A model generated the notes under the pieces. That model did no database searches and was not told where the DNA came from. It was given only the letters and a program-made list of their open reading frames with translations. The translations under genes and the position numbers were made by a program. This document shows positions 27,345-56,007 of a stretch of DNA of 64,000 bases, piece by piece (positions within the stretch are counted from its first letter, which is position 1; each line of letters begins with the position of its first letter). The stretch covers positions 356,438,001-356,502,000 of the forward strand of contig OZ024742.1 of the NCBI GenBank assembly GCA_964016885.1. The letters are read 5' to 3'. Source of the stretch: Eledone cirrhosa. Taxonomy: Eukaryota.

Positions 27345-27834
27345 TATATATATATACATGTATATATATATATGTATATATATATATATACATGTATATA
27401 TATATATATATATATATATATATATATATATATATATATATATATATATATATATATATATATATATATATATATGTATATATATGTATATATATAGGTA
27501 TATATATATGTATATATATATATGTATATATATATATATATATATATGTATATATATATAGGTATATATATATATATATATATATATATATAAACGTAAG
27601 TATTATGTATACGTACATACATATATGTATACAGACGTACAGTAGCATGCATATATATATATATATATATACATATATACATACAGGTACACATACATAT
27701 ATGCACGTATCAGTTTAGCGGACGCTTAATATAACGCCCACTTTGTTCGTTTGTAAACAAACTGAACAGCCTGAATTTATGCCGTACGGTGTTAAGGCAA
27801 CCACGTCACATTTTTGTTCAACACTGACACAGGA

Positions 27835-27877
27835 ACGATGTACTAGTTTCAAGCTTGTCAGCTATCATCAGCACCGT
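27835..27877 (-). ncRNA. Type I hammerhead ribozyme, first family A copy (representative of ~50)
   Basis: acggtg-CTGATGA-tAGCT gaca AGCTt-GAAAC TA GTA-catcgt; the consensus loop in other copies is aaca. Predicted cleavage is between 27841 and 27840. The outer stem gttcaac/gttgaac spans 27816-27902. Confidence 0.85.
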
Positions 27878-27951
27878 ATACCCTTCTGCAAGATAGTTGA
27901 ACGTTCGAAAGTATATACTTTCCTCATGAAAATTAACGGCTGAGCATCCTA

Positions 27952-51400: not shown

Positions 51401-54400
51401 AGTCGGTCAGGCGTACCGAGAGCGATAAGTTGTAATAAAATGAAAACGAAATTTCATTTCTCACTCTTAATACGGCACTTACTTAAACATAAGTATGTAT
51501 ATATACGTACATACATATATGTATACAGACGTACAGTAGCATGCATATATATATATATATACATATATACATACAGGTACACATACATATATGCACGTAT
51601 CAGTTTAGCGGACGCTTATTATAACGCCCGCTTTGTTCGTTTGTAAACAAACTGAACAGCCTGAATTTATGCCGTACGGTTTTAAGGCAACCACGTCACC
51701 TTTTTGTTCAACACTGACACAGGAAAGATGTACTAGTTTCAAGCTTGTTAGCTATCATCAGCACCGTATACGCTTCTGCCAGATAGTTGAACGTTCGAAA
51801 GTATATACTTTCCTTATGAAAATTAACGGCTAAGCAACATAATTTGCATATCGAGTGAGTTAAGTCGGTCAGGCGTACCGAGAGCGATGAGTTGTAATAA
51901 AATGAAAATGAAATTTCATTTCTCACTCTTAATACGGCACTTACTTAAACGTAAGTATGTATGTATACGTACATACATATATGTATACAGACGTACAGTA
52001 GCATGCATATATATATATATATATATATATATATATATACAGCTACACATACATATATGCACGTATCAGTTTAGCGGACGCTTATTATAACGCCCGCTTT
52101 GTTCGTTTGTAAACAATTTGAACAGCCTGAATTTATGCCGTACGGTGTTAAGGCAACCTCGTCATCTTTTTGTTCAACACTGACACAGGAACGATGTACT
52201 AGTTTCAAGCTTGTTAGCTATCATCAGCACCGTATACCCTTCTGCCAGATAGTTGAACGTCCGAAAGTATATACTTTCCTTATGAAAATTAACGGCTGAG
52301 CAGCCTAATTTGCATATCGAGTGATTTCAGTCGGTTAGGCGTACCGAGAAAGATACTTTGTAATAAAATGAAAACGAAATTTCATTACTCACTCTTAGTA
52401 CGGCACTTACTTAAACGTAAGTATGTATGTATACGTACATAGATATATGTATACAGACGTACAGTAGCATGCATATTTATATCTATATATATATCTATCT
52501 ATATATATATATATATATATATATATATATATATATATATATATATATATATACATATATACATACAGGTACACATACATATATGCACGTATCAGTTTAG
52601 CGGACGCGTATTATAACGCCCGCTTTGTTCGTTTGTAAACAAACTGAACAGCCTGAATTTATACCGTACGGTGTTAAGGCAACCACGTCACCTTTTTGTT
52701 CAACACTGACACAGGACAGATGTACTAGTTTCAAGCTTGTTAGCTATCATCAGCACCGTATACCCTTCTGCCAGATAGTTGAACATTCGAAAGTATATAC
52801 TTTCCTTATGAAAATTAACGGCTGAGCAGCCTAATTTGCATATCGAGTGAGTTAAGTCGGTCAGGCGTACCGAGAACGACAAGTTGTAATAAAATGAAAA
52901 CGAAATTTCATTTCACACTCTTAGTACGGCACTTACTTAAACGTAAGTATGTATGTATACGTACATACATATATGTATACAGACGTACAGTAGCATGCAT
53001 ATATATATATATTTATATATATATACATATATACATACAGGTACACATAGATATATGCACGTATCAGTTTAGCGGACGCTTATTATAACGCCTGCTTTGT
53101 TCGTTTGTAAACAAACTGAACAGCCTGAATTTATGCCGTACGGTGTTAAGGCAACCACGTGACCTTTTTGTTCAACACTGACACAGGAACAATGTACTAG
53201 TTTCAAGCTTGTTAGCTATCATCAGCACCGTATACCCTTCTGCCAGATAGTTGAACGTTCGAAAGTATATACTTTCCTTATGAAAATTAACCGCTAAGCA
53301 ACATAATTTGCATATCGAGTGAGTTAAGTCGGTCAGGCGTACCGAGAGCGATAAGTTGTAATAAAATGAAAACGAAATTTCATTTCTCACTCTTAATACG
53401 GCACTTACTTAAACATAAGTATGTATGTATACGTACATACATATATGTATACAGACGTACAGTAGCATGCATATATATATATATATACATATATACATAC
53501 AGGTACACATACATATATGCACGTATCAGTTTAGCGGACGCTTATTATAACGCCCGCTTTGTTCGTTTGTAAACAAACTGAACAGCCTGAATTTATGCCG
53601 TACGGTGTTAAGGCAACCACGTCACCTTTTTGTTCAACACTGACACAGGAAAGATGTACTAGTTTCAAGCTTGTTAGCTATCATCAGCACCGTATACGCT
53701 TCTGCTAGATAGTTGAACGTTCGAAAGTATATACTTTCCTTATGAAAATTAACGGCTAAGCAACATAATTTGCATATCGAGTGAGTTAAGTCGGTCAGGC
53801 GTACCGAGAGCGATAAGTTGTAATAAAATGAAAACGAAATTTCATTTCTCACTGTAATACGGCACTTACTTAAACGTAAGTATGTATGTATACGTACATA
53901 CATATATGTATACAGACGTACAGTAGCATGCATATATATATATATATATATATATATATATATATATATACATACAGCTACACATACATATATGCACGTA
54001 TCAGTTTAGCGGACGCTTATTATAACGCCCGCTTTGTTTGTTTGTAAACAAACTGAACAGCCTGAATTTATGCCGTACGGTGTTAATGCAACCACGTCAC
54101 CTTTTTGTTCAACACTGACACAGGAACGATGTACTAGTTTCAAGCTTGTTAGCTATTATCAGCACCGTATACCCTTCTGCCAGATAGTTGAACGTTCGAA
54201 AGTATATACTTTCCTTATGAAAATTAACGGCTGAGCAGCCTAATTTGCATATCGAGTGAGTTAAGTCGGTCAGGCGTACCGAGAACGATAAGTTGTAATA
54301 AAATGAAAACGAAATTTCATTTCACACTCTTAGTACGGCACTTACTTAAACGTAAGTATGTATGTATACGTACATACATATATGTATACAGACGTACAGT

Positions 54401-56007
54401 AGCATGCATATATATATATATTTATATATATATACATATATACATACAGGTACACATAGATATATGCACGTATCAGTTTAGCGGACGCTTATTATAACGC
54501 CTGCTTTGTTCGTTTGTAAACAAACTGAACAGCCTGAATTTATGCCGTACGGTGTTAAGGCAACCACGTCACCTTTTTCTTCAACACTGACACAGGACAG
54601 ATGTACTAGTTTCAAGCTTGTTAGCTATCATCAGCACCGTATACCCTTCTGCCAGATAGTTGAACGTTCGAAAGTATATACTTTCCTTATGAAAATTAAC
54701 GGCTGAGCAGCCTAATTTGCATATCGAGTGAGTTAAGTCGGTCAGGCGTACCGAGAACAGTAAGTTGTAATAAAATGAAAACGAAATTTCATTTCTCACT
54801 CTTAGTACGGCACTTACTTAAACGTAAGTATGTATGTATACGTACATACATATATGTATACAGACGTACAGTAGCATGCATATATATTTATATATATATA
54901 TATATATATATACATATACACATACAGGTACACATACATATATGCACGTATCAGTTTAGCGGACGCTTAATTATAACGCCCGCTTTGTTCGTTTGTAAAC
55001 AAACTTAACAGCCTGAATTTATGACGTACGGTGTTAAGGCAACCACGTGACCTTTTTGTTCAACACTGACACAGGAACGATGTACTAGTTTCAAGCTTTT
55101 TAGCTATCATCAGCACCGTATACCCTTCTGCCAGATAGTTGAACGTTCGAAAGTATATACTTTCCTTATGAAAATTAACGGCTGAGCAGCCTAATTTGCA
55201 TATCGAGTGAGTTAAGTCGGTCAGGCGTACCGAGAACGATAAGTTGTAATAAAATGAAAACGAAATTTCATTTCTCACACTGCCGTACTAAGAGTGAGAA
55301 ATGAAATTTCGTTTTCATTTTATTACAACTTATCGTTCTCGGTACGCCTGACCGACTTAACTCACTCGATATGCAAATTAGGTTGCTCATCCGTTAATTT
55401 TCATAAGGAATTTATATAATTTCGAACGTTCAACTATCTGGCAGAAGGGTATACGGTGCTGATGATGGCTAACAAGCTTGAAACTAGTACATCGTTCTTG
55501 TGTCAGTGTTGAACAAAAAGGTGTCGTGGTTGCCTTAACACCGTACGGCATAAATTCAGGCTGTTCAGTTTGTTTACAAACGAATAAAGCGGGCGTTATA
55601 ATAAGCGTCCGCTAAACTGATACGTGCATATATGTATGTGTACCTGTATGTATATATGTATATATATATATATATATATATATATGCATGCTACTGTACG
55701 TCTGTATACATATATGTATGTACGTATACGTACTTACTTACGTTTATGTAAGTGCCGTACCAAGAGTGAGAAATGAAATTTCGTTTTCATTTTATTACAA
55801 CTTATATATATATATGTATATATATATAGGTATATATATATATATATATATATATATAAATATATATATATATATATATATATATATATATATATATATA
55901 TATATTTATACATATATATATATATATATATATATGTATATATATATATATGTATATATATATATATGTATATATATATATAGGTATATATATGTATATA
56001 TATATAT

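Follow-up and report, generated by a model that had tools for sequence, protein, structure and literature searches.

How does a ribozyme-bearing repeat come to fill 28 kb of a cephalopod genome with some fifty head-to-tail copies? The question is raised by a stretch of 64,000 nucleotides of Eledone cirrhosa (contig OZ024742.1, positions 356,438,001 to 356,502,000; hereafter the window), in which an array of repeats carrying hammerhead ribozymes (HHRs), here called family A, extends from position 27591 to 55805. By every feature tested in the sequence, family A is a retrozyme lacking long terminal repeats (a non-LTR retrozyme), a known class. The ends of the array are the clearest hint here of how retrozymes move. 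We consider it likely, at roughly 80%, that the array goes back to a single insertion of a non-coding, non-autonomous retrozyme, which was copied by the machinery of a Penelope-like element (PLE) and later lengthened by duplication at the DNA level. The class proposed in a preliminary description of this DNA was known already; what is new is the insertion-end architecture as evidence on mechanism.

Ends of the array and of its dispersed relatives

The family A insertion consists of two arms in opposite orientation. The main arm (27591 to 55281, minus strand) starts at a short 3' end at 27591 and holds 50 monomers with an HHR, of which 11 precede and 39 follow an interrupting PLE, together with one deleted unit near 32920-33300 that lacks the HHR; recent block duplications occupy its right half. 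The final 525 bp (55281-55805, plus strand), about 1.1 monomer with one HHR, are inverted and run to a long 3' end. In an RNA numbering in which q1 is the cleavage site, the short end lies at q243 and the long end at q302, and the 'tail' between them (55747-55805, plus strand), which contains a hairpin and then a U-rich stretch, is present at one end only. (TA)n target tracts flank the unit on the left (27346-27590) and on the right (55806-56007), the latter with an interrupted TATAGGTATA pattern common to the left flank. Since the sequence passes from the short end (27591) through the point of inversion (55281) to the long end (55805), the 28 kb are best read as one insertion unit.

This locus has many relatives. 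The A-type HHR motif has 27,161 exact matches in the 3.0-Gb genome (reversed-pattern control, 0), and a putative promoter motif discussed below occurs 62-92 nt before the HHR core in 25,518 matches genome-wide (control, 1). Dispersed copies occur as monomers, dimers and multimers, and no LTR structure was found at the dispersed loci examined, in accord with a class of small, low-GC repeats that are without LTR, PBS and PPT. The local satellite implied by the preliminary description therefore gives way to a different picture, in which thousands of insertions with Penelope-type ends are scattered through the genome, the array being one of them.

We analysed these ends by alignment at 62 non-redundant loci, which were best BLAST matches or first matches on contig C1 and not a random sample. 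Of 107 3' ends, 105 fall within two narrow windows, q233-243 or q290-302 in family A and q223-233 or q297-302 in a second family, B, defining two fixed internal end sites about 60-70 nt apart. TA-rich DNA adjoins 103 of the 107, and the junctions with the target are formed through 2-3 nt of TA microhomology; target-site duplications are unreadable because the ends sit in (TA)n. Most insertions are inverted repeats whose inverted arms are 5'-truncated to a variable extent. When the two ends facing each other were paired, 36 of 38 pairs combined one short with one long end, two of these being doubtful (L044, a palindromic TA match, and L148, with arms 4.8 kb apart), and none combined two long ends. 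In the two exceptions (L003, L037) the pair marks an internal break, and the outer ends are again short and long. An independent subfamily, A2, has its ends at q219 and q275 and shows the short and long combination in 7/10 facing pairs, and the same asymmetry is found in 3/3 inverted copies examined of the genome's own PLE.

Published PLEs (PMC8557442, PMC11167929) are found in AT-rich or (TA)n targets and have a tail at one end together with an inverted copy that is truncated 5', and all these traits recur in the retrozymes here. In vitro, moreover, the Poseidon_Ac PLE uses two internal reverse transcriptase (RT) start sites beside a stem-loop, and its protein cuts and extends both strands (PMC11167929). 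The end structure of the retrozymes thus matches the PLE signature at the sequence level, with presumably one start site for each target strand. We rejected the long end as a plain RNA polymerase III (Pol III) terminator, a reading that fits family B but is about 12 nt off in family A, and that is unneeded since a PLE with open reading frames (ORFs) has the same tail.

The array itself agrees in most respects with the preliminary description. Its roughly 50 head-to-tail monomers measure 454-547 nt (median 471, 48 measured) with a GC content of about 0.35, and most of the size range comes from the varying length of an internal (TA)n-rich tract (27600-27710), which forms a long hairpin. BLAST of the monomer's unique part returned 53 pieces between 27725 and 55804; 51 of them include the HHR region. 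The minus strand carries 50 of these, and the remaining one is on the plus strand within the inverted terminal arm. The 28-kb satellite described for 27591..55803 is real as a repeat, at 27591-55805, but it is interrupted by a 3.3-kb PLE lying within the (TA)n of one monomer (about 33308-36626) and has an inverted end. The statement that essentially every monomer encodes a ribozyme holds for the motif, present in 51/51 full units, but not for the core, which is intact in only 39/51. Array units average 2.8% from the consensus and form about 20 lineages by eye. A block of nine units is repeated almost exactly near 40.5-49 kb, the units at 28649 and 54479 have identical unique parts, and the 48 whole monomers include four pairs of exact duplicates.

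Family B lies in the same (TA)n field just upstream of the array. Its insertion (26418-27345, minus strand) comprises about two units of 470 nt, with a long 3' end at 26418, a 5' truncation and no inversion. A canonical type I HHR with the G10.1-C11.1 pair and a GUC triplet occupies 27182-27224 (minus strand), and a second copy (26712-26754) has a broken GAAA. The two families are homologous along their length, with 297 of 430 aligned positions identical (69%; score 339 against 169±12 for shuffles). Genome-wide, family B has 1626 first-look candidates, and its subfamilies differ in their triplet (GUC, GUU or GUA) and include a compensatory change in stem II. Two very young arrays of family B, with about 31 and 15 nearly identical units, follow the same plan of short end, inversion and long end, and variants common to their units also point to duplication at the DNA level. 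These loci (G000:C1:5738094-5752747, L142-L143; and L144) are the best ones for dating the birth of an array. Contigs from two other organisms (runs X5, X6) resemble family A at about 92-95% and a depth of about 2-26, one of them with an inversion joint; whether they reflect related species or contamination, they are a weak lead only.

The ribozyme and the template

Re-reading the minus strand of the first unit (27835-27877) confirmed the type I HHR reported earlier: ACGGUG-CUGAUGA-U AGCU AACA AGCU U-GAAAC UA GUA and, beyond the predicted cut, CAUCGU. The core elements CUGANGA, GAAA and UH and stems I-III, all canonical features of the type I hammerhead, are present, with a stem I of 6 bp, a stem II of 4 bp over a U·U mismatch and the palindrome ACUAGU as stem III. 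Cleavage would occur after GUA, between 27841 and 27840, the position predicted before, and the HHR is embedded, as had been claimed, in a longer rod (z -2.7; 3/200 shuffles equally good). The U·U mismatch takes the place of the canonical G10.1-C11.1 pair at the base of stem II and was seen in 96 of the first 100 A-type motif matches listed. The other four form a minor subfamily with C·G or C·A at this position and a GUU triplet (G000:C1:3823, 10007599, 15349754 and 20850757; L204-L207), which is possibly older than the U·U form.

The search with HHR models proposed in the preliminary description gave no Rfam match at gathering thresholds; below threshold, the HH9 model scored 17.6 bits (E 0.68) for the family A HHR and 34.2 bits for that of family B, against a gathering threshold of 52. 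Matches to mir-297 and similar Rfam families were dismissed as TA-repeat noise. The retrozyme-like assignment is sustained by the anatomy, by stem covariation and by a published precedent from the axolotl. The axolotl HHR_Amex2 of Rtz_353 shares with family A a 2-bp helix III and a helix II that starts from a U·U mismatch, and it is likewise accompanied by a second family in one genome (PMC7229834). It has a tetraloop where family A has a loop III of 2 nt (ACUAGU), and the predicted cleavage triplet of family A is GUA. With this same defect, the HHR_Amex2 monomer cleaves to 22% in 1 h, and the dimer cleaves better (PMC7229834).

Across 15 subfamily representatives of A and B, 96% of stem cells are paired and 6/15 pairs show double changes; no shuffled or slid control reached the covariation score, which is inflated by kinship of the representatives, though changes recur in stems I and II. 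ACUAGU is invariant in 15/15 representatives, loop included, as expected for cleavage as a dimer. Inside the array, 12/51 HHR copies carry core substitutions, and stems I and II plus the core are all kept in 31/51. The covariation of the stems across subfamilies indicates that propagating lineages keep the ribozyme although inserted copies decay. Circular monomers are predicted to fold well (z -7.1 for A, to which the TA tract contributes, and -9.6 for B, against 40 shuffles), and in the modelled fold the HHR rod closes the ring.

What RNA was copied can be asked of the 5' ends and of the arms. The arms run through the ribozyme junction, and of 108 5' ends only 2 come within 5 nt of the cleavage site, roughly as many as chance would give; around 11 of the 108 (near q126-142 of A) are probably breaks in the TA tract. 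Cut linear monomers were therefore rejected as templates, and the indifference of the 5' ends to the cleavage site favours circular or uncleaved templates. Copies are closer within a locus than between loci, a comparison that includes the opposite arms of one locus (1.4% against 2.2% in A, 1.2% against 2.3% in B; 0/5000 permutations each), and variants found in no third locus are shared by 7/17 and 40/86 within-locus pairs, as against 12/758 and 14/1516 between-locus pairs. A ligated circle would reconcile a conserved ribozyme with read-through copying, and we infer that the template was probably a circular monomer.

Several observations weigh against this account of PLE copying from a circle. 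The loci chosen for end analysis favour good matches, and two of the facing pairs are insecure, as stated above. No homology beyond TA repeats appeared among the matches listed when A, A2 and B were compared with one PLE family and two fragments in the window, a comparison outside which other PLE families (24,763 first-look candidates) lie; the PLE in the window was rejected as donor of the retrozyme sequence on this basis. Purifying selection on the core was not found within the array, where, with each variant counted once, 6 distinct variants stand against 6.5 expected, so that the array appears to be decaying neutrally. Eight of nine predicted Xenopus retrozyme dimers are described as not cleaving in vitro. 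The anole PLE, in turn, uses unprocessed RNA as its main substrate in vitro (PMC11167929), from which it follows that circles are not required.

That last finding lends weight to the alternative that the same PLE machinery copied uncleaved linear read-through multimers, the HHR acting elsewhere and circles being by-products or absent. Mutation of the HHR did not block insertion by the anole enzyme (PMC11167929), with linear multimers, too, 5' ends would not be expected at the cleavage site, and a U·U ribozyme is weak as a monomer, as seen for Amex2. This alternative is nevertheless unlikely in our view, because compensatory changes preserve the HHR stems from one subfamily to the next, the canonical HHR of family B included, and because private variants are often common to both arms and to all units. 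One circle is the simplest source of such sharing, although a homogeneous source array would also fit. A different engine altogether, whether a long interspersed nuclear element (LINE) acting by twin priming or a DNA rolling-circle or fold-back process, is very improbable. LINEs are present, for instance at 61500-64000 of the window, 5' inversions of LINEs are known, and homology to the PLE pseudo-long terminal repeat (pLTR) was not found in the comparison with one PLE family. Against such an engine, both arms copy overlapping sequence from two fixed internal sites, poly(A) is absent from the ends, and the tail follows the PLE pattern, which the genome's own PLE also displays.

A U6-like element upstream of the ribozyme

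Outside the HHR, the best-conserved block between A and B is TATGCAAATTAG (27949-27960, minus strand) followed after 42 nt by a TATA-like box (27912-27917, minus strand), TATATA in A and TATAAC in B. The same element is found at -76 to -79 in seven distinct promoters of the genome's U6, U6atac, RNase MRP and tRNA-Sec genes. It was not found in the other U6, U6atac and tRNA-Sec-like matches listed, apparently pseudogenes, and the upstream regions of U1, U2 and RNase P do not contain the full 11-mer. If the element works, transcription would start about 47 nt before the cut in A. The first run of four or five T after this predicted start is found at q280-298, close to the long end; a T5 comes earlier in one B subfamily array. 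A promoter so placed would be outside a terminated transcript, and therefore only read-through multimers or circles could carry it. A distal TACCTCCC-like box (about -265 to -290) was not seen in the monomers listed, by a pattern that also missed U6atac, MRP and tRNA-Sec. A newt-type Pol II promoter of the small nuclear RNA (snRNA) kind was rejected, since the upstream regions of U1 and U2 share TCAGT near -57 and lack the 11-mer.

The host genes offer some observations in their own right. Their type 3 Pol III promoter reads TATG(C/G)(A/T)AAT(T/G)AG at -76 to -79 with a TATA near -30 (L083-L086, L097, L103, L196, L197), and would be useful for guide-RNA expression in this animal. U1 and U2 additionally share AATTAAA near -90, and the distal box is common to U1, U2, U6 and RNase P. 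Upstream of the RNase P RNA gene (L195) lie the TCAGT of the U1/U2 type and the distal box without the U6-type element, so that this gene may, judging from its promoter motifs, be transcribed by Pol II; it would then be unlike the snail and oyster genes (PMC4287351).

Whether the U6-like element works as a promoter can be answered only tentatively, with odds a little under even, and the opposite view, that it survives as a captured relic or for its part in an RNA hairpin, with transcription reading through from outside, has a comparable claim. The element stands 4-6 bp too close to its TATA box, at 42-43 nt in A and B compared with 46-48 in all seven host genes; it pairs with a downstream strand in the modelled circular fold; some subfamilies have ATGCAAATTGG or ATGCATATTGG instead; no selection on it is apparent inside the array (5 variants, 5.5 expected); and a review states that retrozymes seem promoterless (PMC7761336). 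A matrix built from the seven genes nevertheless scores 20.5 for A and 23.1 for B, a value of 15 being reached at 0 of 529,648 background positions. Strand and order are correct, upstream of the HHR, and the block is kept between A and B despite 69% overall identity. In contig run X1, no motif variant reached 10% among the rows listed, while the pairing partner was changed in more than half the depth. The same neutral decay of core and motif bears on a further possibility, that the array is a silent fossil satellite, the family spreading from other loci and nothing being made from these 28 kb. The 12 broken cores, the divergence of about 2.8% and the satellite-typical block duplications agree with it; 31/51 units still look complete, 36 copies in the array keep the exact upstream motif, and published retrozyme repeats are widely expressed (PMC7229834). 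We regard silence as quite conceivable, if somewhat less so than not. That the array length is in part an over-expansion of the assembly, as the exact duplicate pairs and the repeated nine-unit block might suggest, is improbable, given that a few substitutions distinguish most of the duplicated blocks from each other and that the unit lineages are so many.

Returning to the reading we prefer, a PLE-copied insertion, its origin and growth may be pictured as follows. Tandem units would be transcribed on the HHR strand, from their own U6-like element or by read-through, and by analogy with published retrozymes the HHRs would cut the multimers to monomers, probably as dimers formed through ACUAGU, for a host ligase to circularize. 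A PLE protein with GIY-YIG and RT domains would then nick both strands of a (TA)n tract, the enzyme being our inference from the end structure observed, and reverse transcription would start at the two fixed internal sites, one per target strand. The RT would pass the ribozyme junction, a read-through seen directly in the arms, on what was presumably a circular template, and arms of one to many units would be joined 5' to 5' with the tail on one side. The long arm would subsequently grow by unequal exchange, decay neutrally and receive a PLE insertion, as the duplicated blocks, the core variants and the interrupting element of this array document. A bolder version, in which the families are self-sufficient RNA circles with their own U6-type Pol III promoter, copied as circles by a PLE dimer priming on both target strands, is rather doubtful.

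Neighbouring elements and known systems

The PLE that interrupts the array (33308-36626, plus strand) is itself 5'-truncated and sits in the (TA)n of a monomer. It has an inverted pLTR arm (33308-33637), a frame with RT and GIY-YIG domains (33607-35208; E 2e-6 and 5e-4, both below the Pfam cut-off) and a terminal pLTR (about 36251-36626, plus strand) that carries a U3-A8 HHR variant (36442-36479), a form described in PMC4209133. A tail of about 36 nt is confined to one end. Its family includes many intact frames of 777 amino acids, with RT and endonuclease, among 144 scored matches. This family is abundant, with a tandem unit of 4843 bp (L192-L194) and apparently a further upstream frame; it has a Cys-rich motif before GIY-YIG, as in Neptune and Nematis, and its U3-A8 HHR variant bears the palindrome ACCGGU.

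Decayed fragments of other PLEs lie at 56471-60260, comprising a GIY-YIG frame (56471-56935, minus strand), RT-like frames without a Pfam match (57833-60212) and a U3-A8-type HHR (about 57790-57830, minus strand) with the palindrome ACGUACGU. By eye, a GIY-YIG-like frame with a YIG motif at 22319-22852 (minus strand) is probably another PLE fragment. Inspection of translations and sequence further points to broken pol-like frames of LTR retrotransposons at 5022-9104 (both strands) and a LINE-like RT region at 61500-64000 (minus strand); no host gene is evident by eye in the window. Elsewhere in the genome, pseudogene-like copies of U6 and U6atac (L107, L099, L098) start directly after (TA)n tracts, which suggests that the same TA-targeting machinery copies snRNAs.

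The metazoan non-LTR retrozymes of coral, Mytilus and axolotl likewise consist of non-coding tandem units of low GC content, each with a type I HHR; their circular fold is self-paired, and they too coexist with PLEs (PMC7229834). Their monomers measure about 170-400 nt (PMC7229834) as against 422-547 nt here. The novelty suspected for monomer size and array length did not survive comparison with the literature: coral arrays reach 62-mers (PMC7229834), and a preprint by Li, Clavereau and Pollet (2026; 10.64898/2026.07.22.740005) gives consensus lengths of 51-972 bp and arrays of 180 and up to 300 units. The same preprint proposes that retrozymes are non-autonomous PLE derivatives; as far as its available text goes, it argues from co-occurrence and pLTR homology, and its sampled classes include no mollusc, whereas the evidence here is insertion-end architecture. 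For the retrozymes of PMC7229834, the text covered reports no fixed ends, inversions, tail or promoter, and a count over the main text gave 0 for each of the words 'inverted', 'tail' and 'cephalopod'. The literature covered, which did not extend to Dfam, Repbase and two supplement sets, yielded no cephalopod retrozyme, no paired short and long retrozyme ends and no U6-type promoter.

The retrozymes here differ from PLEs in the apparent absence of an ORF and in arms that reach 50 units. Their HHR has the canonical C3-G8, in contrast to the U3-A8 variant in the pLTR of the genome's PLE. The Pol III promoter of the Schistosoma satellite SM-alpha is tRNA-like. In this HHR satellite the promoter ends up 3' in the cut monomer and tandems are needed (PMC6765202), and newt satellite 2, also an HHR satellite, has a snRNA-type Pol II promoter (PMC2220036); the element here differs from both and resembles the upstream, TATA-containing U6 type. 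The tail of the retrozymes is 56-69 nt long, compared with the 30-40 nt described for PLEs, and among PLEs non-autonomous, multicopy head-to-tail forms exist, such as Chlamys MRC1.

The mobilization of animal retrozymes has so far been argued from co-occurrence and pLTR similarity. The retrozyme footprint now connects the two start sites that a PLE uses in vitro with the two strands of the target in the living genome, and a template below 500 nt together with intact PLE frames in one genome offers a compact assay of circular against linear RNA and of the site used on each strand. Should the U6-like element prove functional, it would contradict the statement that retrozymes lack promoters. If the families were indeed self-sufficient circles, a promoter that a Pol III transcript normally leaves behind would be passed on through ribozyme-made circles, and tens of thousands of direct records of rolling-circle reverse transcription by PLEs would be preserved in the genome, among them kilobase arms each made in one event. 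This would explain both the PLE tail and the birth of retrozyme satellites. On the reading preferred here, a large satellite array can arise from one retrotransposition event.

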